Of a stretch of 58,671 nt of DNA, positions 5,750 to 58,671 are shown piece by piece; the stretch's first letter is position 1, and every line of letters starts with the position of its first letter. The position numbers and the translations under genes are program-made. Under the pieces are notes generated by a model. The model had not been told where the DNA came from, did no database searches, and worked only from the letters and a program-made list of their open reading frames with translations. This stretch comes from an uncultured Pseudobdellovibrionaceae bacterium (lineage in GTDB: Bacteria > Bdellovibrionota > Bdellovibrionia > Bdellovibrionales > Bdellovibrionaceae). The stretch spans positions 1-58,671 of the forward strand of contig CAZFSX010000001.1 of NCBI GenBank assembly GCA_964522115.1. The letters are read 5' to 3'.

Positions 5750-5892
5750 ACGGTCACGCAGCATAGAATTTCCCCCCAATGCAACCATCTTACCACACCA
5801 GAATGAAACATCTTCAAAAATTCTAAACATGGATCATTTCGAGACAGCCAAAAGTCCTTGTCAAGCCCACAAAGGTTTGAGAACAATGATTC

Positions 5893-6798
5893 ATGTCGAA
5901 AAATTTTTCTAAAAAAGTAAGAAAAGCTATCATCCCCGCCGCAGGTCTAGGAACTCGTTTTTTACCTGCGACTAAAACTGTCCCCAAAGAAATGCTGACC
6001 ATTGTCGATGCGCCCATCATTTTTTATGTTGTCCAGGAAGCTATTCAAGCAGGCATAGAAGACATTGTCCTTATCCAGGGCCGCGGAAAAACAGCCATCG
6101 AAGATTTTTTTGATGTCTCTTTTGAGCTTGAGGAAACACTGCTTCGGACTAAAAAAGAATCCCTTTTAAAAGACTTGATCCAAATTCGAAAGATGGCCAA
6201 CATCATCAGCGTTCGCCAAAAACAACCTCTTGGACTTGGACATGCGGTCCTTTGTGCTGAACGCATTATCGGCGATGAGCCCTTTGCTGTTCTATTGGGT
6301 GATGAAATTATGCTTTCTCGTGAGGGTGAAAAAAACGTAACTTCACAACTTTGTCAACTGTATGGACAGACCGACAAGTCCTCGATTGCAGTCATGAAAG
6401 TCGCAGATACTGAAGTTTCAAAGTATGGTATTGCTGAATTTGATTCGACAAATATTCATGAATTTATGGAAGTAAAAAATTTGATCGAAAAGCCAAAGAT
6501 CGATGAAACACAAAGTCGTTGGGCGCTTCCTGGAAGATATGTTTTTACTCCAAGCATATTCCAAGACTTGCAAAAAACCCAACCGGGAAAGAATGGCGAA
6601 ATTCAGTTAACAGATGCGATGAAATCCTTGCTTCAGCGTGAAGGCATTGTTGCGACAACTTTTTCTTCAACTCGTTTTGATGCTGGTGATAAGCTTGGAT
6701 TTCTGAAAGCAAATATAGAAATGGCACTGCATCGTCCAGAACTTCAAGAATTACTTCAAGAATATCTTCTTGATTTAGCTTCAAGGATAAAAAAATGA
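5893..6798 (+). CDS. galU: UTP--glucose-1-phosphate uridylyltransferase
   Basis: The N-terminal motif AIIPAAGLGTRFLPATKTVPKEML is present, as are ..VRQKQPLGLGHAV.. and ..LLGDE... The length (301 aa) is typical of GalU. Confidence 0.9.
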   Translation: MSKNFSKKVRKAIIPAAGLGTRFLPATKTVPKEMLTIVDAPIIFYVVQEAIQAGIEDIVLIQGRGKTAIEDFFDVSFELEETLLRTKKESLLKDLIQIRKMANIISVRQKQPLGLGHAVLCAERIIGDEPFAVLLGDEIMLSREGEKNVTSQLCQLYGQTDKSSIAVMKVADTEVSKYGIAEFDSTNIHEFMEVKNLIEKPKIDETQSRWALPGRYVFTPSIFQDLQKTQPGKNGEIQLTDAMKSLLQREGIVATTFSSTRFDAGDKLGFLKANIEMALHRPELQELLQEYLLDLASRIKK

Positions 6799-7631
6799 AA
6801 ATACTCTGCCTCCTTTTGATTGCATTACAATCCCATGCTTGGATTCCTCGTGGAATGCAAATTCTGAATAAAGCTGTGGAAAACTCGGGTGCAGGCCTTT
6901 ACCAAATTGAGTATGAAGTTCAAATCCCCGTTGGGGTTGATACCTATGCAATCAAAGAGCGATGGTTGATCGAAAATGATGGAACAATGAAGGTCACTGC
7001 CACCGGCTTGCGTGAATTGAAGGATCAATTTCAATGGCAAGCTCTGTATACCGGTGGACAAAAATACCAGTTGACCACTCAGGGAAAAGTCAATGAGCCG
7101 CTTCCTGTTAGCTTCATAGAAAGAGTTTTTCACTTTCGGAACTCTGATTCATTTGCCAATTACTTAGTCCAGCAACAGATTGTCCCATCATCTATTTTTC
7201 AAGGATCTAAAAGAGCGCTGAAAACTTTGACAGATATAAGCAATCAGACCGAACCCTTCATGCGACTTTCTCGAACAGGAGGAAGTATTGCTTTTGCGTT
7301 TGGTACTCCCTCGGCAACGACGGCTTCGGAAAATAATCCTGGCTTATGGATAGATCAAGATCAGTTTGTTGTTCGAAAGTATCGTGATCCACGTCAGGTG
7401 GAGGTCCTAGCAGATCAATTCCAAACCTATTCTCGAGGTCTTGTGCACCCCAAGGTTCGCACAGTTAAATGGGGATCTCAAACATGGAATATCCTAACGA
7501 CTCAAGTTCAAACTAAGCCTTTTTCACAAAAAGAATTTCAAGCAAGCTCTTTAGATACCTTGAGCAAAAATACAATTCCTCAAGAACAACTCAAAAATCT
7601 GATTCAAGAATTCTATTCCAAATTGAGGTAA
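6795..7631 (+). CDS. exported hypothetical protein
   Basis: There is an ATGA start/stop overlap with galU and a signal peptide (MKILCLLLIALQSHA). No family motif recognised. Confidence 0.55.
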   Translation: MKILCLLLIALQSHAWIPRGMQILNKAVENSGAGLYQIEYEVQIPVGVDTYAIKERWLIENDGTMKVTATGLRELKDQFQWQALYTGGQKYQLTTQGKVNEPLPVSFIERVFHFRNSDSFANYLVQQQIVPSSIFQGSKRALKTLTDISNQTEPFMRLSRTGGSIAFAFGTPSATTASENNPGLWIDQDQFVVRKYRDPRQVEVLADQFQTYSRGLVHPKVRTVKWGSQTWNILTTQVQTKPFSQKEFQASSLDTLSKNTIPQEQLKNLIQEFYSKLR

Positions 7632-7634
7632 ATC

Positions 7635-9674
7635 ATGTCCACAGGCGAATTTTGGAAAGTCGCCACAGATACTCCTGTGGATCAACTTTTTACCTACCAA
7701 GCCCCGATGGAGTTGGTAGAGTCTTTGGTTCCTGGGCAATTCATCAAAGTCCCCTTAGGTCGCGGAGGAAGAAAAGTATCTGGTATCTTGATTGAAAAAC
7801 AAAGCGAAGAACCTACTTTTGAAGCAAAACAAATATTGGAGATCCAGTCGGAATATCCTATTCTTCCACAAAATTTTATTCATTGGTGCCAGTGGTTAGC
7901 GAAATATTATCTTCATCCTTTAGGAGAAGTCTTGCATCTGTCGCTACCTCCTTTATCAAAAAAAAATTCTAAGAAGACTAAGAAATCAGATCCAAGCATG
8001 GGCGATCTTCAGAAGGCACAAATCCCAAGACCCGCACTATCTGCAGAACAAACTATCGTTTTAGAATCAATCCAAAAAACACAAGGCTTTCAAACACATC
8101 TTCTTTTTGGCGTCACGGGATCTGGCAAAACAGAAGTGTATATGCATTTGCTTGAAAAAGTTCTTGCCGAAGATAAAAGTGCAATTGTCATTGTCCCTGA
8201 AATTTCTTTAACACCTCAATTGATTGATCGCTTTGTCCACAGATTTGGCAAGCAAATCGCAGTTCTTCATTCTCAACTAACACCACGTGAAAAAACAAAT
8301 CAGTGGTGGGACATGATAGAAGGAAGAAAAAGAATTGTGATCGGAGCAAGATCCGCTCTCTTTTGCCCTCTTCCTGATCTTGGAATGATCATTGTGGATG
8401 AAGAACACGAATCCAGCTTTAAACAAGATGAAAAGTTGAAATATCATGGCCGTGATGCCGCTGTCATGCTGGGCAAGTATCACCAGTGCCCCGTCGTCTT
8501 GGGATCCGCAACTCCAAGTTTAGAATCCTGGCATAACTGCCTTCAAAAAAAATATCATTTACACAAAATGGAAAATCGAGTGATGGATCGACAACTTCCA
8601 ATTGTGGACATAGTGGATTTAAGAACGACTCCCAAAGAAGAAAATCATGATCTTCGCCCCAGTTGGTGCAGTCCTTTCTTGTTCGAAAAAATTCACGAAA
8701 CTTTGGAACGTGGAGATCAAGTTGCTTTATTTTTAAATCGAAGAGGGGTCGCCCCCTTTGTCTTATGCCCCGCCTGTGGACATACTCGAGAATGTCCTAA
8801 TTGCGATATTTCCTTAACTTTGCATGGGAAAAGTCATCTTGTTTGTCATTATTGCGATTATCATGAAAACCTAAAGACAAGATGTCCAGACTGCAATGAA
8901 GATGAAATGAAACCTGTTGGTCTAGGCACTGAAACACTTGAAAATGATATGCGTAGATTATTTCCAGAAAGACTGATCGTGCGCGCTGATCGCGACGAAA
9001 TTCAAGACAGAGTTAGTTTGGAAAATTTTATTCGTCAGATGGAATCTGGAGCCGTGGATATTTTGATCGGAACGCAAATGATTGCCAAAGGCTTGGACTT
9101 TCCCAAGTTAACACTTGTCGGACTTGTCCTTGCCGATATCGGTTTTCATTTGCCGGATTTTCGATCCACGGAACGAAGCTTTCAAATTTTAACCCAAGTC
9201 AGTGGAAGATCAGGAAGGCATGTTCAGCCGGGACAATCCCCTGGTCATGTGATTATTCAAACTTTAAGTCCCGAACACCCAAGTATTCAGTTCGCGCAGA
9301 ACCATGACTTTCCTGGCTTTGCAAAACATGAGTTGGAGTTTCGCAAGATCCTGGGCTATCCCCCCGTCGGCAAGCTCGTCTCGTTTCGCGTTCAAGGAAC
9401 TCATTTGGATCGAGTTCAACAAACAGCTAGACTTTTGTCTGAACGCGCCTGGGCTTTAAAAACACAACGTCCTCATTTTGAAAACTTCGAAATTTTAGGA
9501 CCCACAGAAGCTCCATTAGCAAAGCTACGAGGGCAATTTCGACATTTTTTGTTGATCAAAAATCCGCAAGGAACCCCCCTTAGTGCTTATTGTTCCCAGC
9601 TTTTATCGGATCAAAAATGGGTTCCTGCAGGAGTTCGTATCGTTGTGGATGTTGACCCACTTCATCTTCTTTAA
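7635..9674 (+). CDS. priA: primosomal protein N' (replication restart helicase PriA)
   Basis: It carries Walker A (GVTGSGKTEVY), a DEEHE box and the Cys-rich zinc insertion CPACGHTRECPNCDISLTLHGKSHLVCHYCDY..CPDC. The length is 679 aa. Confidence 0.9.
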   Translation: MSTGEFWKVATDTPVDQLFTYQAPMELVESLVPGQFIKVPLGRGGRKVSGILIEKQSEEPTFEAKQILEIQSEYPILPQNFIHWCQWLAKYYLHPLGEVLHLSLPPLSKKNSKKTKKSDPSMGDLQKAQIPRPALSAEQTIVLESIQKTQGFQTHLLFGVTGSGKTEVYMHLLEKVLAEDKSAIVIVPEISLTPQLIDRFVHRFGKQIAVLHSQLTPREKTNQWWDMIEGRKRIVIGARSALFCPLPDLGMIIVDEEHESSFKQDEKLKYHGRDAAVMLGKYHQCPVVLGSATPSLESWHNCLQKKYHLHKMENRVMDRQLPIVDIVDLRTTPKEENHDLRPSWCSPFLFEKIHETLERGDQVALFLNRRGVAPFVLCPACGHTRECPNCDISLTLHGKSHLVCHYCDYHENLKTRCPDCNEDEMKPVGLGTETLENDMRRLFPERLIVRADRDEIQDRVSLENFIRQMESGAVDILIGTQMIAKGLDFPKLTLVGLVLADIGFHLPDFRSTERSFQILTQVSGRSGRHVQPGQSPGHVIIQTLSPEHPSIQFAQNHDFPGFAKHELEFRKILGYPPVGKLVSFRVQGTHLDRVQQTARLLSERAWALKTQRPHFENFEILGPTEAPLAKLRGQFRHFLLIKNPQGTPLSAYCSQLLSDQKWVPAGVRIVVDVDPLHLL

Positions 9675-47130: not shown

Positions 47131-48266
47131 AAATTGGGATCTCCTTCGGGCGAACCTGAATTCTGCTTTTCCTTTGACGAAGAGTCTTCCTTACGACCGG
47201 GATCTACCATTTGCAAGTCTTCGTAAATCATTGACTGTCGACGTCGTGTTTCAGGTGTCACATCCGTCATATCCATCTTTGCAACCATCTCCATCTGCGT
47301 TTGTTTTTCTAACTGCCGTATGAACAAATCTGCACGGTCTGTGACTGGATTTTTTTCACTTTCTAATCTTGTTTCTTGATAACGATCAACTAGATTTAGA
47401 ATTTCAAACAAATGCTTTCTTTGTACTTGGTTTTTTTTTCGAACAGCAATTGCCATATCTGTCGATGGATCATTTAAATTCATCTCCATTGTCCAATTCC
47501 AAGCATCACGATAAATGGATTGTAATTTTTCTAAAGACTTTTCTGACCAAACCGAAGAATTGTATTCCATGCTTTTAATCAAAAAAATCTGACCGATTTT
47601 TAATCCATCAATCAACTTTTCAATTCTTGCAGGATCATAACTATTCCAATAAATTTGCCCCATCTGAAAATATATCCGTGCAAACCAATCCTTATTGACT
47701 TGTGTGACCTGGCTGCGCATTTGAAAAACGCCTCGTTCGGCTTCTTTCAACCAGACTTCAGATTCTTGCAGTTGACCCATCAATAAACTCAATGAAGCCA
47801 TCCTTGCAGGATATTCAGCAATTTTGCGTTCTAAAGAAAGAAATTCTCTATATTTCAAAAGATCCCTCATGATTGCTCGCCATCGAATTTTATCCCCCAA
47901 GGCTTCATAGCAATAGGACAATTGAAACATGGCCTCCGCAGCCAATGCCGGGTGGATAGATATTTCCTTTTCAATCACCCCACGCAACAAACTTTCAGCT
48001 GAAGAGTAGTTTTCTAATCCGATGAAACCCTGAGCTCTTAAAATATCCACTTGGCTATCAAAAATAGAATACGGAAAATCCTTTTGAAACTTCTGACTAT
48101 CATCGATCAACTGTTGATATTGAGCTTGGTCATATAAAGATCTTAATTGCTGCAAACTTGGAATTTGCTGTTGTTCCGGATCAACCCTTACAACCTGTGC
48201 TGTTTGACAACTTAAGCCAAGTGCCATGAAGAAGAGAAGACAAATTTTACCCACTGGTTTTTCCAC
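47127..48266 (-). CDS. TPR-like exported protein or lipoprotein
   Basis: The signal peptide is ICLLFFMALGLSCQ. Helical repeats with Tyr/Ala/Leu periodicity follow, and the C-terminal tail is acidic/basic. Confidence 0.5.
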   Translation of the reverse strand: MEKPVGKICLLFFMALGLSCQTAQVVRVDPEQQQIPSLQQLRSLYDQAQYQQLIDDSQKFQKDFPYSIFDSQVDILRAQGFIGLENYSSAESLLRGVIEKEISIHPALAAEAMFQLSYCYEALGDKIRWRAIMRDLLKYREFLSLERKIAEYPARMASLSLLMGQLQESEVWLKEAERGVFQMRSQVTQVNKDWFARIYFQMGQIYWNSYDPARIEKLIDGLKIGQIFLIKSMEYNSSVWSEKSLEKLQSIYRDAWNWTMEMNLNDPSTDMAIAVRKKNQVQRKHLFEILNLVDRYQETRLESEKNPVTDRADLFIRQLEKQTQMEMVAKMDMTDVTPETRRRQSMIYEDLQMVDPGRKEDSSSKEKQNSGSPEGDPNL

Positions 48267-49311
48267 AAGATACCACCTTCGACGGATTCAATGCTGCATA
48301 AATATCTTGAATCATTTGTCTCATATCCTCAAGCGAAGAAAGATCTTCTTCATATTCAGGTAGGCAAATCCAAGAAAGACTTTGCAGACGCGAATCCATT
48401 TGAAACTGGTTCAGCAACTGCTTTTTTTGCTCCTGATATTGAATCACTTCCGAATCCAAAGTAAGACCTTTCGATTCCATTACAGATTCTGGCAAAAATG
48501 CTTTATTCAGATACATTTTTTCAAACTGATAGCCTTGCTTTTCTAATTCAGTCTTTAATTCAGCAGCTTCATGCAAAGCCACATTTCTTAAACTTGTTAC
48601 AAGAATGAATTTTGTGCTTTCCCCATGCAAAAGTTGCTGTGAAAAGGTTAGCCTTTCAGCAATTTTTTCCTGCCAATTTTCAATCAGTTGAAAAAAATCA
48701 AACAACTGCGACAAAAATTCAGCTCCTGTTAACGACTCAAGAATTTTCACTAATTTTTCATATCCAAGAACCAACATTCTTTCAAAAAAGCCTCGCTCTT
48801 TCTGTGGTCGGCCTAACCGAACCCATTGAAATATGTTTTTATCAAATAAAGCGATGATTTTTTGTGGTGTATTCAAAAAATCGATCGCCTGCTCTGCCGG
48901 TGGCGTATCTATCAAAATCAAATCCCAAAGCCCTGTTTTGTATTGAGAATAAATAAATTCAATAGAGGTAAACTCCTGTGCTCCAGAAAGCTGTGTTGAT
49001 AATTTTTGATATAGTTTATTTTGAAATAGGCTTTGAATGCGTTCATCCTTCTGGGCAAATTGTCGAACAAAATCATCAAATATTTTTTGAGCGTTCAGTA
49101 AACATGCCGTGATGGAAATACCCTGATGACTGATCTGTTGCAATTGCCCGTCATGACTTAGACCTAAACTTACTTTCAATCTTTGAGACGGATCCACAGT
49201 CAAAAGTAAGACCTTCTTTCCCATCTTTGCCTGAGCAAAAGCCATCGCAACTGCCGTTGTTGTTTTTCCAACTCCACCCGTTCCTACAACGATTTGAATC
49301 TCTGTTTTCAC
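48247..49311 (-). CDS. ArsA/Get3-family ATPase-like protein (second copy)
   Basis: I prefer GTG 49311, which forms a GTGA overlap with the upstream stop. This gives MKTEIQIVVGTGGVGKTTTAVAMA (P-loop), LLTVDPSQRL, and ILIDTPPAEQAIDFL. Confidence 0.7.
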   Translation of the reverse strand: MKTEIQIVVGTGGVGKTTTAVAMAFAQAKMGKKVLLLTVDPSQRLKVSLGLSHDGQLQQISHQGISITACLLNAQKIFDDFVRQFAQKDERIQSLFQNKLYQKLSTQLSGAQEFTSIEFIYSQYKTGLWDLILIDTPPAEQAIDFLNTPQKIIALFDKNIFQWVRLGRPQKERGFFERMLVLGYEKLVKILESLTGAEFLSQLFDFFQLIENWQEKIAERLTFSQQLLHGESTKFILVTSLRNVALHEAAELKTELEKQGYQFEKMYLNKAFLPESVMESKGLTLDSEVIQYQEQKKQLLNQFQMDSRLQSLSWICLPEYEEDLSSLEDMRQMIQDIYAALNPSKVVSCGKTSG

Positions 49312-50189
49312 AAAGGGCTCCAGCCTGCAACACATGGGGCATCAGAAATTTGCTGGATGACCTTCAATTCGTGCATATTATAGATCATGGGAATATGAAA
49401 AACTTTTTCAGGTTGTAAACTTTGAAACAAAGAACTGTTCTGCAGTTCGCATTGACGTCGCTTTTTCTGTGCAAGATATGTCTTCGTGTTTTTATCGATC
49501 TGCTGCAGATCGTGGGATTGATTGATCCACAGATAGGCGTTTTTTTGAAAATTGTTTTTTAAAAATTGCAATATCTCGCTGGACTCTTGCAGCGAATATT
49601 CTGTCGGCAAAGCAACACAGTGAAATATTGTTTGTGCCGATCTTAAACACTCATCTATAGCACGGCTTTGCTCTCCCATTGGCCCCATCGACACCACTTG
49701 CCCTAACGCTTGAGGCGCCTTCAAAAGCGACATAAAGTGCCCCGTTGCAAATGCATCAACCACAATGTCTTGATAGGGCATTGCTGGGCCCACACGACGG
49801 AAGTGACTGGTTGCCTTCCCCAACAAGGAAAGCTCGGTCAAACCAGGCGCCACCTGAATCAAAGATCGCGACACCGAGTTTTCTAAAAACCAATCAACCA
49901 AAGTAGGAACTTTCAACAGGTGAAGAGCGTAATCTCTTAAACATTCAGTCCCTGTCCAAACCGACCACTGCATGGGTAGATCTTTCCCCAAGGAATCCCC
50001 CCAGCCCTGAGGATAAAACTGCCCCTGCAACCCCGGGAACAGATGGGCAAAATAGCTTTTTTGCCGTAGCTCCACCAGTAGGACTCGGCGCCCTTTCCTT
50101 GCCAAGGACAAAGCCAAAGCCGCCGAAACCGCCGACTTCCCTACCCCTCCCTTGCCAGTGATAAAGTGCAAATGTGCCATGGAACTCAT
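49308..50189 (-). CDS. ArsA/Get3-family ATPase-like protein (first copy)
   Basis: HFITGKGGVGKSAVSAALALSLARKGRRVLLVEL (deviant P-loop) and VVDAFATGHFMSLL (compare the ArsA DTAPTGHT switch). Confidence 0.75.
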   Translation of the reverse strand: MSSMAHLHFITGKGGVGKSAVSAALALSLARKGRRVLLVELRQKSYFAHLFPGLQGQFYPQGWGDSLGKDLPMQWSVWTGTECLRDYALHLLKVPTLVDWFLENSVSRSLIQVAPGLTELSLLGKATSHFRRVGPAMPYQDIVVDAFATGHFMSLLKAPQALGQVVSMGPMGEQSRAIDECLRSAQTIFHCVALPTEYSLQESSEILQFLKNNFQKNAYLWINQSHDLQQIDKNTKTYLAQKKRRQCELQNSSLFQSLQPEKVFHIPMIYNMHELKVIQQISDAPCVAGWSPL

Positions 50190-52477: not shown

Positions 52478-53803
52478 TTACAAAATTCGTCGCATTAATT
52501 TGAAGGCTTGAAGATGATGAAACGCCTGCTGCAGTTGAAAGTCGTTTTTTAAAATTTCTTCTTTCGCAGAAGGTTTTTCTGACTTTTTTGAATCTCCAAT
52601 TTTTTCTTTTTCACCCAGCAAATGCCCTGATAAATCTTTTTCTCGAGAGGCATCTTTTTTATCTTTTTTGACTTCAATTTCACGATCTTCAATTTCTATA
52701 TCGGGTTTGATACCTTCCGCCTGGATAGAAATACCACTGGGTGTGTAATAGCGTGCCACAGTAAGTTTAAGTCCGGCCCCATCACCCAATTTCACGATCG
52801 ATTGAACGGATCCCTTTCCAAAGCTTCGCTCTCCGACAATTAAAGCACGTTTATTATCCTGCAAGGCTCCTGCAACAATTTCACTGGCACTGGCGGAGTG
52901 TTCATTAATAAGAACAACTAAAGGAAGTTTTGGATAGGCAGCCTTCTTTGTTGCCATGGCAACCTCTTTATCATTTTTATTGCGTCCGATCGTGCTGACA
53001 ATCACGCCCTCGGGAAGAAATAAGTCACTGACTTTGATGGCTTGATCCAAAAGCCCACCTGGGTTTTTCCTCAAGTCCAAAATAAGCCCCTTCATTTCAG
53101 GATATTTTTTTTGATGGTTTTGCAAAGCCTTTTCTAAGTCTTTCGAAGTTCCTTCGATAAAGCTAGTAATCTTCACATATGCAAATCCATCTTCTAAATC
53201 TGTGTATTTCACACTGTGAATTTTAACGACACCGCGAACGATGGGGATTTCAATGGGCTTATCTTCTTCCTCATTGCGAATCACTTTTAAAGTAATTTTA
53301 GCACCCTTTTTCCCACGCATCATCTGAGATGCTTCAACAAGACTCAATCCCTTTGTTGATTTGCCATCTATGGCGATTATTTTATCTCCAGATTTAACTC
53401 CAGCATTGTAGGCGGGAGTATCTTCGATGGGCGCAATGACAGTTAAATAGCCATTTTGAACAGAAATTTCCACACCTAGCCCACCAAATTCACCGTTCGT
53501 TTCATTTTCAAAGTCTCTCATAATTTCAGGTGGTAAATAATTAGTGTGTGGATCTAATTCGCGCATCATTCCACGAATAGCGCCATTCAGAAGTTTTTTT
53601 GTATCTACTTCTTCGACATAGTATTGTTGAATCATGTTCAACACTTTAGAAAAATTTTGAATTTCAGCATAACGTTCATCGACTGCGGCGGAGGCTGCCG
53701 CGAAAGATTTTGTCCATTTGAATTGAAAATGTTTGTGAATAAAAAGTCCTGCAGCAATAGCAAGTAAGCACAAAACCAATTTTATCATTCGCTGTTGGTT
53801 CAT
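52478..53803 (-). CDS. ctpA: carboxy-terminal processing protease (S41, PDZ-containing)
   Basis: ATG 53803 forms an ATGA overlap with the upstream ftsX/envC stop. It has a PDZ segment (AYNAGVKSGDKIIAIDG), the catalytic Ser context GERSFGKGSVQ, and Lys in GIKPDI. Confidence 0.9.
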   Translation of the reverse strand: MNQQRMIKLVLCLLAIAAGLFIHKHFQFKWTKSFAAASAAVDERYAEIQNFSKVLNMIQQYYVEEVDTKKLLNGAIRGMMRELDPHTNYLPPEIMRDFENETNGEFGGLGVEISVQNGYLTVIAPIEDTPAYNAGVKSGDKIIAIDGKSTKGLSLVEASQMMRGKKGAKITLKVIRNEEEDKPIEIPIVRGVVKIHSVKYTDLEDGFAYVKITSFIEGTSKDLEKALQNHQKKYPEMKGLILDLRKNPGGLLDQAIKVSDLFLPEGVIVSTIGRNKNDKEVAMATKKAAYPKLPLVVLINEHSASASEIVAGALQDNKRALIVGERSFGKGSVQSIVKLGDGAGLKLTVARYYTPSGISIQAEGIKPDIEIEDREIEVKKDKKDASREKDLSGHLLGEKEKIGDSKKSEKPSAKEEILKNDFQLQQAFHHLQAFKLMRRIL

Positions 53804-55839
53804 AAAGAGGGTCCTTTCAACCATGACTTGGGATCATAGGGTTCTGAAAAATGTCGAATTTCAAAATACATTCCTTGCGTTCCATGAATTTCCGAAAAAC
53901 CCGTGCTGGCAATCTTTTGCTGGGGTTGAACTTTTTCTCCAAGACTGACCACGGCATCTTTGGTTCCAGCATAGACGGTGTAGTAATGATCACCATGATC
54001 TAAGACGACGACTTGTCCCCATCCATCCATCGATCCTTGGTATGCAACTTTTCCACTGGCAACTGCAAACACTGTTTGATCGTGATCTGTCGCAAAGAAC
54101 AAGCCTTTGTGTGCAAATGCAATTTTTAAAAAAGGGTCCCTTTGAACACCAAATCCCTGGTATATCTTAGCATTCAATGGATATGGCAATTGTCCCTTTA
54201 AATCTGAAAAGGCGGACTCAGACAGAAGGTCAACCCATCCTTGATCCGTGCGTTGATCCCGGTTTAATTTTTCTTTTAACACGGCCAGTTTTTCTTCCGT
54301 CATCAAGGCACTGTCTTTGATTTTTTTAAGTAATTTCTTTTTCAGCTGATTTTGTTCGGCTAAACGACTTTCTGTTCGAAGATGTTGTTTTTGTAGCTTT
54401 TGAAGTTTTGCCACCCGAGACGCAAGTTTTTTCTTTTTCCCATCCAATTCTGCAAACGTCGATCGATAATTACGAATCAATTCCAAATCATTGCGCATCA
54501 GATGCGAAAGAATGCGCACATTTCGATCTAAATCGTTCATCTTATCCGATGACAAAATGATTTTTAACACTCCCTGCTGAGAGACACGATAAATGGATCG
54601 AACGCGCTTCTTTAGAAAATCTTTTTGACCGCTGAGTTGCTGATCCAGCTGACTTATTTTCCCATTGATATCTTCGATGCTGACTTCAAGGGACTGCGAC
54701 TCTTGTTCCAGCATGCTACGTTCTTGTTCCGCGCGACGTTGTTTTCGATTCAGTTCAAACAAAGCCCCAAGAAGACGGCGTTGTTCTTGCTCTTGCTGCA
54801 GAAGCTTTTGTTTTGTTTTTAGATAGTGCTCCTTTAAATTTCCAGAATTCGCAGCCAAAGAAGAAGAATTCGCAGCCAACAAACTTGCAAGACACATCCA
54901 TGGTAACCATAAAGGCACTGCCCATGTTGCTGTTGTTGCCGTGGACCATCCCGTATTGATCGAACGAACACGCAAATATGCTATACTGATTGTGACCAGG
55001 ACGGCCGCAGATAGAAATGACAGTAATTGTTTTGAATTTAAAAACTGAACCTGTTTAGCAATGCTAACCAACGCCAGATTTTCACGCATTTCCTGTGCTA
55101 GCAAATCAAAAACAACGTAATCCAAAACCATGGCAAGGCAAGAGGCAAGAATCGACAAAAATAGTGCTTCAAAAAGAAAGGGGCCACGGATCATCCAACG
55201 GCCGGCACCAATTATTTCTAAGACTTCCAACTCTTCCCTTCGTTGATCAATAGAAGTTTGCAATGAATTCGAAATCACAAAAAACACACCCGCCACCAAA
55301 AGAATTGAAATCAGTCCACCTAAACTTTGAAAGCCTTTCACAAATTGCGCATATCTTTGGATCCAGTCCTGACCGTAGGTCACTTCATCCACCCAAGTGC
55401 TTTGCTTCACTTGTTCAGCTAAATTCGCAAGAAGCACAGATCTTTGATCAAAGGGAATGTCTTCCTTCAAACGCACTTCTAAGCTGGCGGGAATGAGTTT
55501 CAGGACGTCGACATCTTTAATTAAATCGCCAGCGATGTGATTCATCTGATTTTGAAAGGACCGAATGGAATCTTCTTGCGAAATAAATCCAATATTTTGC
55601 ACATTTGGATTTTCTTGAATATTTTGAATCAAATCCTGAACATCATCATGCTTTGCCGTTGAAACCAGATAAGCAGTTAGTTGAAATTCATTGCCCCAAA
55701 ATGTGACCAATCTTGAAAAATTTTGAGAAAGTAAAAAGAAAAACAAAATCACAGACAGCGATGCTGTCATCACAATCAGACTTGTTAATTGCAAACCTGA
55801 ATGATGTTTCCATGTCTTCACAAGATGTCGCAAAATCAT
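53800..55839 (-). CDS. ftsX: FtsX permease fused in frame to an EnvC-like coiled-coil / degenerate LytM (M23) domain
   Basis: Residues 1-290 have FtsX topology: TM1, a periplasmic loop, then 3 TMs. Residues 307-325 form an extra hydrophobic segment (AVPLWLPWMCLASLLAA). Residues 335-530 are a Gln/Lys/Glu coiled coil. Residues 560-679 are an M23 fold with degraded metal motifs. There is no stop codon anywhere in the 679 codons. Confidence 0.8.
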   Translation of the reverse strand: MILRHLVKTWKHHSGLQLTSLIVMTASLSVILFFFLLSQNFSRLVTFWGNEFQLTAYLVSTAKHDDVQDLIQNIQENPNVQNIGFISQEDSIRSFQNQMNHIAGDLIKDVDVLKLIPASLEVRLKEDIPFDQRSVLLANLAEQVKQSTWVDEVTYGQDWIQRYAQFVKGFQSLGGLISILLVAGVFFVISNSLQTSIDQRREELEVLEIIGAGRWMIRGPFLFEALFLSILASCLAMVLDYVVFDLLAQEMRENLALVSIAKQVQFLNSKQLLSFLSAAVLVTISIAYLRVRSINTGWSTATTATWAVPLWLPWMCLASLLAANSSSLAANSGNLKEHYLKTKQKLLQQEQEQRRLLGALFELNRKQRRAEQERSMLEQESQSLEVSIEDINGKISQLDQQLSGQKDFLKKRVRSIYRVSQQGVLKIILSSDKMNDLDRNVRILSHLMRNDLELIRNYRSTFAELDGKKKKLASRVAKLQKLQKQHLRTESRLAEQNQLKKKLLKKIKDSALMTEEKLAVLKEKLNRDQRTDQGWVDLLSESAFSDLKGQLPYPLNAKIYQGFGVQRDPFLKIAFAHKGLFFATDHDQTVFAVASGKVAYQGSMDGWGQVVVLDHGDHYYTVYAGTKDAVVSLGEKVQPQQKIASTGFSEIHGTQGMYFEIRHFSEPYDPKSWLKGPSL

Positions 55840-55922: not shown

Positions 55923-56576
55923 CTAGACCTTTAAAAGGCCATCTTTAATTTCTAAGGTTCTTTTTTTTCGACGTTGTACCATCGAGTGATCATGGGTTGC
56001 GATGAAGACAGTTGTCCCCTGGCTGGAGACCTTTTCAAATAAATCCATAATGTCTTCACTTAATTGTGGATCCAAGTTTCCTGTGGGCTCATCCGCGATC
56101 AGCAATTTTGGTTGATGAACAATGGCACGAGCAATGGCGGTACGTTTCTGTTCTCCACCCGAGACAAAATCAGGGTACTGATCTGCCTTGCTGGCAAGCC
56201 CCACTTTTTCTAAAATTTGCAGGGACTTTGCCATAGCTTCTTTGGAAGAGACCCCTTGAATGGTTAAGGGTAAGGCAACATTTTCTTGCAAAGTACGGTC
56301 CTTCAAAAGTTTGAAGTCTTGAAAGACGATCCCCACATTACGACGAAACTTCACCAGATCCTTTGCGGAAATATTTTGAAGATCAAACCCAACGACCTTC
56401 AAGGTTCCACTTGTGGGTCGATCAAAGGCAGACAACATTTTAAACAAAGTTGTTTTCCCCGATCCCGATGGACCTGTTAAATAAACGAATTCGCCTTGAT
56501 CAATATGAAGATCAATATTTTTCAAGGCCTGAATCTGCCCTGGATAAACTTTGTAAACGTGAGACATCTCAATCAT
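55923..56576 (-). CDS. ftsE: cell-division ABC transporter ATP-binding protein FtsE
   Basis: Motifs: LTGPSGSGKTTL, VSGGEQKRTAIARA, LLIADEPTGNLD. It is 217 aa and lies directly upstream of ftsX. Confidence 0.95.
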   Translation of the reverse strand: MIEMSHVYKVYPGQIQALKNIDLHIDQGEFVYLTGPSGSGKTTLFKMLSAFDRPTSGTLKVVGFDLQNISAKDLVKFRRNVGIVFQDFKLLKDRTLQENVALPLTIQGVSSKEAMAKSLQILEKVGLASKADQYPDFVSGGEQKRTAIARAIVHQPKLLIADEPTGNLDPQLSEDIMDLFEKVSSQGTTVFIATHDHSMVQRRKKRTLEIKDGLLKV

Positions 56577-56919: not shown

Positions 56920-56988
56920 ATGGCATGGAGTTCTGGAAAAATTAAAACAACTAAATCAACTGTAGTTAAAATTGTTGTTGAGCAATAA
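56920..56988 (+). CDS. 22-codon small ORF (leader peptide or small secreted/signalling peptide)
   Basis: AAAGGAG sits 6 nt before ATG 56920. The translation is MAWSSGKIKTTKSTVVKIVVEQ, followed by TAA. It is below the track's size threshold. Confidence 0.4.
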   Translation: MAWSSGKIKTTKSTVVKIVVEQ

Positions 56989-57016
56989 AAAATGGGGCCT
57001 TTGTGCCCCATTTTTT
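56986..57016 (+). terminator. intrinsic terminator immediately after the small ORF
   Basis: TAAAAAATGGGGC-CTTTGT-GCCCCATTTTTT. The GC-rich stem starts 3-4 nt after the stop codon and a T6 tract follows it. Only 18 nt separate the T-tract from the next ATG. Confidence 0.7.
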
Positions 57017-57034
57017 GATTGAAAGTGAGTATTT

Positions 57035-58671
57035 ATGCAAAAACAATCAAATATATTTCTTTTACTAAGTTTATTTTTTTATCTCTTTACACAGGTTTTT
57101 TTTATTTATGCATCCATGGGACATCTCACGATGATGGACCAAGGCATTAAAAGTATTTCTCTTTTATTATTACTCCAGGCCTGTGGTGCTTTGATTTCAA
57201 GACTTATTAAAAATAATTTATTCAGTAAAAGAATCTATTGGATTTCAGCTAGTTTGTTTTATTCTTTTATTCCTCTATTTTTTTTGAACAATAAAAACTT
57301 CTCTAACACTCTAACTATTTTTACTTTTATCTTATATTTCTTTCTTAGTTCAAACCTATCACTTTATGTACTGAATAAACTTGGTTCTATTTCAAATCCA
57401 GATGAATATATTCTGCCAAAAAAAATTACTCTTGTAAGTACCACTTCTTACTTATTGGGTACTGCCATTGGACCATATATAGGTCTAGAAAAAAACTCAG
57501 AAACCATTGTTGCAATTTCGATGCTATCTTCATTTGTTGGTTTTTTGCTTCTAATTGCCGCCCTTAATTCAGAAACTAACGTGAAAGAACAATTGACCGA
57601 TAGAAGTTCGTACAAAAATATTCATTCAGACAGTTTTTTCTATATTTTTATTAATTTTTTGCTTTGGGTAACGTTTGGCGCACTACAAGTAATCGAAATT
57701 CCAATTTTGAAAGAACGTTTCAATTTTGATTCTCATACTATTTCACTTTTATTTTCATTAGCTCTCATTTCTAACATTATTTTTTCATCATTTTTTCACA
57801 AATTTTTCGGGAAAGAGTTTATTTTAAATTCAAAGCATTTGGCTCTAATACTTCTGATAACAATTTTAACCGTAATTTTTTATGGTGTTAATACGTTCAA
57901 GTTTTTTAACTGGCCAATAATGATTACAATCGGAGTCCTAAATGGCCTTTATCTTATTTGTTTAAACGGCTTGGTATTTCGCATTAGAATTGAATCGCAA
58001 AGATTAGTATTATTTCAGAATTTAAAAGTGGCAGAGTATTTCGGAACTATCTGTGGCTGCTTGCTGGCTGCATTATTTTCAAAATTGGACGGTAGTATAC
58101 TCATTTTATCTATTGGAATAATTGTCATTACATTTTTTTTAATTTTTCTTTTTTTACATTTTCGAAAAATTGCTTTTTTTGTTTTGCCTATAATTACAAT
58201 TATTTCTTACACAAAGCATTCCTATGCTAATCCAATCCGACACGACTTCAATGTTGTTATTCCAAGTTTACCAAAAAGCTGTCTACCAACGGAGGCGGGA
58301 TTAACACCATCAGCTCTAGTTTTTAATCAAATTTTTAATCGACTATATGAGTATACTGAACAAGATCTCGTAGAACCTGTACTTATCGCAAAACATGTTT
58401 GGTCGCAAAATGGTACCCATTTAAATCTTACCCTAAAGAAGGGAATATTTTTTTCAGACGGCACTGAATTAACTTCAAAGGATGTTTATTATAGCATAAC
58501 TAATTCTTTAAAACTTCTTAAAGGTGGTGCAGGATGGGCCTTTGGTAATATCAAGGGATATGACCAATTTAAGAAATCGTTAAACCTCAGTCACCTTTCT
58601 GGATTTAAAGTTATTGATAAATATAATATTTCCTTCACTTTTATGGTGCCCGATAAGGCTTTCATTTCAAT
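57035..58671 (+). CDS. MFS-like 12-TM permease fused via a 13th TM to a family-5 (peptide/nickel-type) solute-binding domain; 3'-truncated by the window edge
   Basis: It is absent from the supplied track because it has no stop before the window end. My manual translation from ATG 57035 gives 545 sense codons with no stop. About 12 hydrophobic helices are arranged 6+6 around a polar central loop (residues 178-200). They are followed by HFRK-IAFFVLPIITIISY-TKHSYA (signal-anchor-like), then ..LVFNQIFNRLYEY..DLVEPVLIAKHVWSQNGTHLNLTLKKGIFFSDGTELTSKDVYYSI.., the classic N-terminal pattern of SBP_bac_5 proteins. Confidence 0.75.
   Translation, partial: MQKQSNIFLLLSLFFYLFTQVFFIYASMGHLTMMDQGIKSISLLLLLQACGALISRLIKNNLFSKRIYWISASLFYSFIPLFFLNNKNFSNTLTIFTFILYFFLSSNLSLYVLNKLGSISNPDEYILPKKITLVSTTSYLLGTAIGPYIGLEKNSETIVAISMLSSFVGFLLLIAALNSETNVKEQLTDRSSYKNIHSDSFFYIFINFLLWVTFGALQVIEIPILKERFNFDSHTISLLFSLALISNIIFSSFFHKFFGKEFILNSKHLALILLITILTVIFYGVNTFKFFNWPIMITIGVLNGLYLICLNGLVFRIRIESQRLVLFQNLKVAEYFGTICGCLLAALFSKLDGSILILSIGIIVITFFLIFLFLHFRKIAFFVLPIITIISYTKHSYANPIRHDFNVVIPSLPKSCLPTEAGLTPSALVFNQIFNRLYEYTEQDLVEPVLIAKHVWSQNGTHLNLTLKKGIFFSDGTELTSKDVYYSITNSLKLLKGGAGWAFGNIKGYDQFKKSLNLSHLSGFKVIDKYNISFTFMVPDKAFIS

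Follow-up and report, generated by a model that had tools for sequence, protein, structure and literature searches.

The window analysed here, 58,671 nucleotides of contig CAZFSX010000001.1 (GenBank assembly GCA_964522115.1) from an uncultured Pseudobdellovibrionaceae bacterium, ends within a gene that joins a putative permease of the major facilitator superfamily (MFS) to a solute-binding protein (SBP) of family 5 (SBP5). The 5' 545 of its 856 codons lie at 57035..58671 on the + strand. They encode an MFS-fold permease domain (residues 1-376, 57035..58162), a segment resembling both a thirteenth transmembrane (TM) helix and an internal signal peptide (residues 377-398, 58163..58228), and the N-terminal third of a binding domain (residues 399-545, 58229..58671). 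The fusion opens a conserved operon of tightly coupled genes, in which it is followed by a tandem S-adenosylmethionine (SAM)-dependent methyltransferase and a sensor histidine kinase. This rare family of MFS, SBP5 and kinase genes suggests that binding proteins may be linked with both transport and signalling in a way that has not been described.

From 57035 to 58671, 545 codons can be read without meeting a stop, and the frame is still open where the window ends. An earlier note, made from the DNA letters and their translated frames, had described this frame and its absence from the list of open reading frames (ORFs). Both observations are correct, the reason for the absence being that the list omits frames running off the window end. 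A word-indexed search with the fusion protein retrieved P0001, a protein of 829 amino acids (aa) that is 100% identical over the overlap and originates from the Logan contig L001 (5,134 nt); beyond the protein itself, the word-indexed searches with the protein and with a family profile returned ordinary SBP5 proteins only. L001 agrees with the window's last 2,046 nt at 99.7% nucleotide identity, with 5 mismatches and 1 gap, and represents a slightly different strain from that of the window. In this independent assembly the gene starts from the same ATG and continues in the same frame to a stop, giving 856 codons (410-2980 of L001), and the fusion is in frame. The extension of the contig that the earlier note had proposed is thereby supplied, together with the downstream neighbours of the gene. 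At least ten further fused homologues, 16-36% identical, align collinearly over both halves and also keep the frame. The ATG at 57035, rather than the Met28 selected by the gene caller, is likely to be the start codon, because the homologues align through TM1.

The region is AT-rich (~30% GC) and the junction is located within an indel-prone T-rich stretch. These features are mere hints that the frame might be an assembly or frameshift artefact, or a decaying pseudogene. Such an explanation is refuted by the same in-frame junction in L001 and by the fused homologues, and its probability is negligible. No frameshift or stop that would split the frame into two genes, as the note had considered, was seen in L001 or in these homologues. 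The fusion frame is a real gene.

The N-terminal part is assigned to the MFS because of the profile matches of its relatives and because of its fold. The first 378 aa of the window protein match no Pfam or NCBIfam family, and the first 399 aa reach 30.5 bits (E 2.3e-7) against MFS_1 (PF07690), just below the curated cut-off of 33.4 bits. Several family members pass this cut-off with 35.9-55.3 bits, and in the domain-only alignment 10 of the 12 members match MFS_1, with a best E of 1.6e-18. The AlphaFold2 (AF2) model of aa 1-399 (pLDDT 82.4, pTM 0.81) contains 12 long helices, arranged 6+6 around a disordered central loop (aa 184-195), plus a short 13th. When this part was compared with the PDB by Foldseek, all 50 of the 50 matches listed were MFS carriers, with TM-scores of 0.6-0.75 over ~390 columns. 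The structural neighbours among these matches include NorA, G6PT1, MdfA, VMAT1/2, SotB, GlpT and NupG, with G6PT1 and GlpT ranking no better than the DHA1 carriers. Neither a single sequence nor a profile of the MFS part matched any PDB sequence, and fold comparison alone gave matches. We conclude that the N-terminal part is a 12-helix MFS fold, an assignment that is indirect, through the model and the relatives, for the window protein and firm for the family. The 6+6 helix layout described in the earlier note is present, and the profile and fold searches that it had suggested agree with an MFS carrier. The G-x-L-x-x-R-x-x-K string after TM2, which the note had likened to an MFS motif, does occur in the window sequence, but it is private to that sequence and, not being conserved in the family, is no evidence of MFS membership.

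The family-invariant residues of the MFS part are P147, G215, E221, P223, L225, F240 and G300. The conserved positions cluster in the cavity-lining helices TM7, TM8 and TM10 of the C-domain (W211, G215, F217, E221, N247 and G300), and the N-domain is poorly conserved across the family. The strongest motif, E221-x-P223-x-L225-K-x-R-F (E-V-P-x-L-K-x-R-F), falls at the predicted periplasmic end of TM7, where it is a plausible candidate for a docking site of the binding protein.

The C-terminal part belongs to the periplasmic family-5 solute-binding domains (cluster C, peptide/opine/nickel-type). Against SBP_bac_5 (PF00496; curated cut-off 32.4 bits), the window part scores 41.9 bits over aa 446-543, the full protein scores 80.5 bits, and all fused relatives score between 53 and 112 bits. 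The last 459 aa align at both ends with the solved chains of OppA, MppA, AppA, DppE and PrgZ. In a profile of the SBP domain from ten loci, positions 15-427 align with residues 25-480 of the peptide-binding protein 8upi (E 4e-34), and the family motif GYVPDYxDPDALL falls on the W-x-x-D-[YF]-x-D-P of OppA/MppA-type chains. The AF2 model of P0001, which lacks TM1, has a pLDDT of 75 and a pTM of 0.55, and in Foldseek it matches MppA, DppA, OppA and DppE (target TM-scores 0.6-0.76). Two cysteines, C650 and C816, occur in every one of the nine fused members that were aligned. Because the profile match runs from end to end and the fold agrees, we conclude that the C-terminal part is a complete binding protein of the OppA/MppA/DppE type, ~455 aa in length, with the two-lobe fold that such proteins form from about 450-520 aa. 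The family-5 signature recognised in the earlier note is therefore confirmed, and the short fragment that it had also considered is ruled out.

The segment that joins the two domains reads RK, IAFFVLPIITIIS and YTKHSYA in succession, and signal peptidase I may have a site behind its SYA. The basic pair, hydrophobic core and SYA that the earlier note had reported at aa 377-398 are all there. It had interpreted them as a retained signal peptide that, as a 13th TM helix, would place the binding domain in the periplasm. Comparison with the relatives supports both parts of this interpretation. Stand-alone MFS relatives stop right after TM12 and stand-alone SBP relatives start with signal peptides, while the fused proteins add a short basic loop and TM13 to the permease. 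Two fused proteins, P0011 and that of locus L014, have 11 TM helices, without TM12 and TM13, so that their helix count is still odd. Lys and Arg residues in the MFS-TM13 topology number 13 inside vs 8 outside, in agreement with a cytoplasmic N-terminus. Because of the odd helix count, the signal peptides of the stand-alone SBPs and this charge bias, all read from sequence, the binding domain is predicted to face the periplasm.

The same segment allows a different view of the mature proteins, in which the fusion exists at the gene level only. TM13 would be an internal signal peptide, and signal peptidase I would cut SYA|NP after aa 398 to release a free periplasmic SBP, made 1:1 with the MFS protein in the manner of a polyprotein. 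An n-region, a hydrophobic core and a small-x-Ala motif are found in 8 of the 8 fusions with 13 TM helices (SYA, AVA, TRA, AQA, LNA, GYA, ATA and VSA), 8-14 residues ahead of the first SBP strand, and the secreted stand-alone SBP of locus L009 has an equal spacing between motif and strand. The chance expectation of the motif in all eight is ~1.7e-4, a rough figure, for proteins at most 30% identical, that is weakened by a scan window chosen after the data had been seen. The 11-TM variants speak against cleavage, since their SBP is joined directly to a helix without a clear n-h-c signal peptide. Weighing these points, we give release of the binding protein a substantial but minority chance. As it concerns the anatomy of the mature proteins, cleavage could go together with each of the functional models considered below. 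A precedent for a polyprotein precursor of this kind is the Bradyrhizobium cytochrome b/c1 protein FbcH.

To collect the family, aa 1-399 were compared by exhaustive phmmer (HMMER) with 1.84 billion representatives at E <= 1e-3. Just 12 other proteins were found by this search, which alone brought the family to light, eight of 791-887 aa and four of 354-400 aa, and every one of the long relatives carries SBP_bac_5. A scan of the genome collection with the single fusion protein gave no match, and a subset alignment of four sequences yielded loci. From look-ups of the relatives, two collection scans and purpose-built hidden Markov models (HMMs), 14 distinct loci were gathered. The MFS and SBP5 parts are fused in nine of them (window/L001, L002, L004, L006, L008, L012, L014, L017 and L018) and split in four, in the order MFS then SBP in L011, L015 and L020, and as SBP, methyltransferase, kinase, MFS in L009; L013, which is cut at its 5' end, is counted in neither class. 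The comparison of fused with split genes that the earlier note had recommended has thus found both forms. The MAG (metagenome-assembled genome) labels of the loci are Pseudobdellovibrionaceae, Oligoflexia, 'uncultured Elusimicrobia' and unclassified, and the others are unassigned metagenome contigs.

The order in L001 is fusion, 464-aa tandem class-I SAM-methyltransferase and kinase, with overlapping stop and start codons, and the genes of the module abut or overlap across the loci. The double methyltransferase is present in 13 of 14 loci and the family-specific kinase in 13 of 13, that is, in all loci extending far enough. In L012-L015, which were outside the training of the HMMs, the partner genes were recognised with E values from 1e-62 to 1e-163. 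The MFS, SBP, methyltransferase and kinase are each 14-36% identical between loci, and therefore the arrangement has been kept through deep divergence. In the methyltransferase, SAM motif I is kept in both halves, and the protein matches generic class-I models alone, far below the cut-off of any specific family. The kinase has the same architecture in all loci, namely TM1, a periplasmic domain of ~115-125 aa, TM2, HisKA and HATPase_c, often with an added receiver domain; at L001 only its first 255 aa are available, ending in a weak HisKA match. In L018 (33-4278), the 11-helix fusion P0011 is directly followed by the family kinase without a methyltransferase, and the latter is therefore dispensable to the core of the system. 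We regard the MFS and SBP5 proteins as probable working partners, because they occur as separate genes in the same operon in relatives, once in a different order. At the genome level, MFS, SBP5 and kinase are obligate partners. Judged from gene order, such fused, split and reordered forms within one operon are a classic genomic signature of physical partnership.

The partners of SBPs described so far belong to ABC, TRAP and TTT systems only (PMC5812351, PMC8276074), and the SBP-dependent secondary transporters listed in reviews are TRAP and TTT only (PMC5812351). A review of the MFS, 300,000 characters long, covers enzymatic, regulatory and signalling fusions as well as the UhpC sensor, and never uses the term 'binding protein' (PMC8154325). 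In line with the statement of the earlier note that the arrangement is not known as characterised, targeted full-text literature searches found no description of an MFS-SBP fusion, although an earlier mention may exist. The membrane part of the fusion has an MFS fold and its SBP is of family 5, so that it is not a member of TRAP or TTT, although it may work similarly. We regard the system described here as a putative case of secondary transport or sensing that depends on a binding protein and has a new carrier partner.

Among known systems, the BctCBA/BctDE system of TTT type in Bordetella resembles the proposed scheme in that the SBP BctC serves both a gradient-driven carrier and, in its liganded form, the co-encoded periplasm-sensing kinase BctE (PMC5812351). 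TTT systems differ in their membrane parts (TctA/TctB) and SBP (TctC/Bug), which take the places of the MFS and family-5 proteins found here, and they have no reported fusion of SBP to carrier and no methyltransferase. TRAP transporters (DctPQM, SiaPQM, with rare Q-P fusions) share the proposed SBP-dependent secondary transport, the occurrence of fused and unfused forms and extra helices that adjust the topology (PMC8276074, PMC5812351); unlike the fusion, they have the elevator-type fold of the ion-transporter superfamily (DctM/DctQ), DctP/TAXI binding proteins and organic-acid substrates. SBPs are also fused to ABC translocators, and fused and unfused arrangements coexist in ABC and TRAP systems (PMC8276074). 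The ABC importers OpuA and GlnPQ resemble the fusion in carrying the binding domain on the translocator polypeptide (PMC8276074), but they contain ABC transmembrane domains with ATPases and are driven by ATP, whereas the module has no ABC genes. With the Opp, Dpp and MppA systems, the binding domain shares the family and fold, a full-length alignment and the D-[YF]-x-D-P region, but its partner is an MFS protein instead of OppBCDF or DppBCDF, and it has motifs of its own together with C650 and C816.

Two further comparisons concern the MFS partner. UhpC acts with the histidine kinase UhpB in glucose-6-phosphate sensing by E. coli and is itself an MFS protein (PMC8154325); it belongs to the organophosphate:phosphate antiporter family, and has no binding-protein domain, and the relationship shown here to the fusion is confined to the MFS fold. 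With regard to a co-sensor of the UhpC/UhpB type, the kinase of the module carries a periplasmic domain in addition to its 2 TM helices. The periplasmic mutarotase NanM is fused to SSS (SiaF) or MFS carriers via an extra helix, which fixes the topology of a periplasmic accessory domain on a secondary carrier (PMC8461474). Judged by analogy, the NanM fusions are the nearest architectural precedent, although the fused part is a beta-propeller enzyme and no kinase or methyltransferase partners have been described.

The earlier note had suggested peptide uptake or sensing without an ABC ATPase. This idea fits the genomic context, because the module contains no ABC genes and a periplasm-sensing kinase is always adjacent. 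The function that we favour, with slightly less than even confidence, is SBP-assisted, gradient-driven uptake by the MFS carrier, in which the state of the SBP or of the carrier would be read by the kinase and the imported compound would be methylated. Uptake of this type is favoured because of the BctC/BctE precedent and of the fused and split forms known from ABC and TRAP systems. The binding domain, whether it stays tethered or is set free by signal peptidase, would catch a peptide-like, amine-bearing ligand in the periplasm and dock at the periplasmic face of the MFS domain, where E-V-P-x-L-K-x-R-F caps TM7. The carrier would then import the ligand with the energy of a membrane gradient and without ATP. 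The periplasmic domain of the kinase would read the liganded SBP or the carrier state, as BctE reads BctC in the TTT citrate system. In the cytoplasm, the double methyltransferase would modify the imported compound, a step that would be accessory, as one locus does without it.

Several observations weigh against uptake of this kind. Most of the structures nearest to the MFS part belong to antiporters of the drug:H+ or organophosphate kind (NorA, MdfA, SotB, VMAT and G6PT), which does not favour uptake. For the whole protein, the AF2 model reaches no more than a moderate quality (pTM 0.55). Co-divergence of MFS and SBP is weak in a mirror-tree comparison (r = 0.41, p about 0.03), as the distances between members are all much the same. 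None of the 14 loci has an ABC permease or ATPase gene within the module, but an ABC partner could be encoded elsewhere in the genome. Finally, the canonical motif A (G-x-x-x-D-[RK]-x-G-R-[RK]) of the TM2-TM3 loop lacks conservation among the 12 aligned MFS sequences, which could mean a non-cycling MFS protein of the sensor type. Motif A is common, though not universal, in MFS carriers.

This last point leads to the possibility of a sensor complex without import. The MFS protein would be a UhpC-like transceptor or a scaffold, and the SBP5 domain would be a co-receptor that presents the ligand to the periplasmic domain of the kinase, as LuxP does for LuxQ, TorT for TorS and BctC for BctE. The lack of a conserved motif A and the poor conservation of the N-domain are consistent with such a role, as are the periplasmic domain of the kinase and its position as the most constant partner (13 of the 13 loci reaching it), kept even in L018, where the methyltransferase is absent. 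In addition, UhpC provides an example of an MFS sensor that acts via the UhpABC cascade (PMC8154325). The conserved cavity-lining residues of the C-domain, however, are those expected of a working substrate pathway, and a simple anchor would need neither 12 conserved helices nor the separate MFS gene of the split loci. A cytoplasmic double methyltransferase also implies a cytoplasmic substrate. We therefore consider a purely sensory complex unlikely.

The antiporter-like fold also raises the question of transport in the opposite direction. In a self-contained circuit, the methyltransferase would make a methylated small molecule, the MFS protein would export it, and the SBP5 and kinase would recapture and sense it. 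The closest MFS structures are indeed exporters and antiporters of the DHA1 type, and MatE and MFS_3 efflux genes adjoin the module in L020. The combination of a methyltransferase with a histidine kinase in one operon parallels the PhcB/PhcS quorum sensing of Ralstonia (PMC8578825). The methylated molecule made there by PhcB is methyl 3-hydroxymyristate. The two proteins PhcB, a SAM-methyltransferase, and PhcS, a sensor histidine kinase, act together in that system, but neither MFS nor SBP takes part, and it is likened to the module by gene pairing only. The methyltransferase of the module stays below every specific family cut-off, and L018 retains fusion and kinase without it. Moreover, if a receptor were tethered to the exporter of the very ligand that it senses, population sensing would be short-circuited, and the characterised pairings of SBPs with membrane transporters all serve import (PMC5812351, PMC8276074). 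Such an export circuit seems to us quite improbable, and uptake through the MFS carrier remains the function that we prefer.

The surroundings of the module differ among the loci. The GC content drops from ~0.40 in the housekeeping flank to ~0.30 over the module, from ~56600 to the end of the window and in L001; a similar but smaller dip occurs at L011 and only a slight one at L008. The neighbouring genes are different at each locus, with toxin-antitoxin or Abi genes among them in some. The drop in GC and the differing neighbours suggest that the module is a mobile cassette. In L013, from a Pseudobdellovibrionaceae MAG, a second kinase paralogue (5873-7771; E 4e-121 to the HMM of the module's kinase) is located ~1.2 kb downstream of the module kinase. 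At 3645-7810 of L020, immediately upstream of its split module, are genes for a response regulator of the sigma-54-dependent type, an MFS_3 carrier and a MatE efflux pump; in that genome, the kinase may have its otherwise missing output partner in this regulator. At 19069-19884 of L011, ~4 kb downstream of its split module, there is a gene of the MbnB/TglH/ChrH family (DUF692), a family typical of clusters for peptide modification; this is probably a coincidence.

Ahead of the fusion gene in the window, a hairpin of 13 bp with an A-run and a U-run at its flanks (56986..57017) ends 18 nt before the ATG. Its predicted RNA fold has -17.2 kcal/mol (z = -4.6), and 0 of 200 shuffles were as good. 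In the leader of the operon, the hairpin may serve as terminator or attenuator, a role that is uncertain; a consensus scan did not call it, and an Rfam scan of the leader gave nothing meaningful. It lies directly 3' of a 22-codon ORF (56920-56988, + strand), MAWSSGKIKTTKSTVVKIVVEQ, with a good AAAGGAG ribosome-binding site, and there is no room for a promoter between these elements and the fusion ATG. The ORF was also considered as a conserved precursor or leader peptide, and rejected, as the other loci have no conserved counterpart of it ahead of the module. Taken together, ORF and hairpin might be an attenuator or a small gene, or have arisen by chance.

On the opposite strand to the fusion gene, the sole ABC ATPase nearby in the window is FtsE (55923-56576), which is paired with an FtsX fusion. 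The latter (53800-55839, - strand) is a 679-aa protein in which the extracellular domain and the permease of FtsX are combined with a coiled coil of the PcsB type and an M23 peptidase domain, so that FtsX and an EnvC/PcsB-type partner, separate as a rule, appear to be fused. At 48247-50189 (- strand) are two adjacent, overlapping genes of ArsA-type ATPases (362 and 293 aa), flanked by a trigger-factor-like gene, named by sequence only, and a gene for a tetratricopeptide-like protein. The leucyl aminopeptidase of the window is 65-69% identical to Bdellovibrio and Pseudobdellovibrionaceae proteins.

The implications of the fusion depend on its mode of action. If transport is confirmed, it would represent a new solution to energy coupling in high-affinity uptake and would mean that the rocker-switch mechanism of the MFS accepts a docking protein; orphan SBP genes beside MFS genes would then need re-annotation. 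Since the signal-peptidase motif is conserved, a membrane polyprotein, seldom documented in bacteria, is conceivable, and the invariant kinase partner would make the module a compact model of transport and signalling that share one receptor. With considerable reserve, we suggest that a fourth class of binding-protein-dependent transporter may stand beside ABC, TRAP and TTT, in which an MFS carrier is fed by a tethered or released family-5 SBP and is hard-wired to a dedicated periplasm-sensing kinase. By this means, Bdellovibrio-like bacteria could detect and import prey-derived peptides or muropeptides without ATP.

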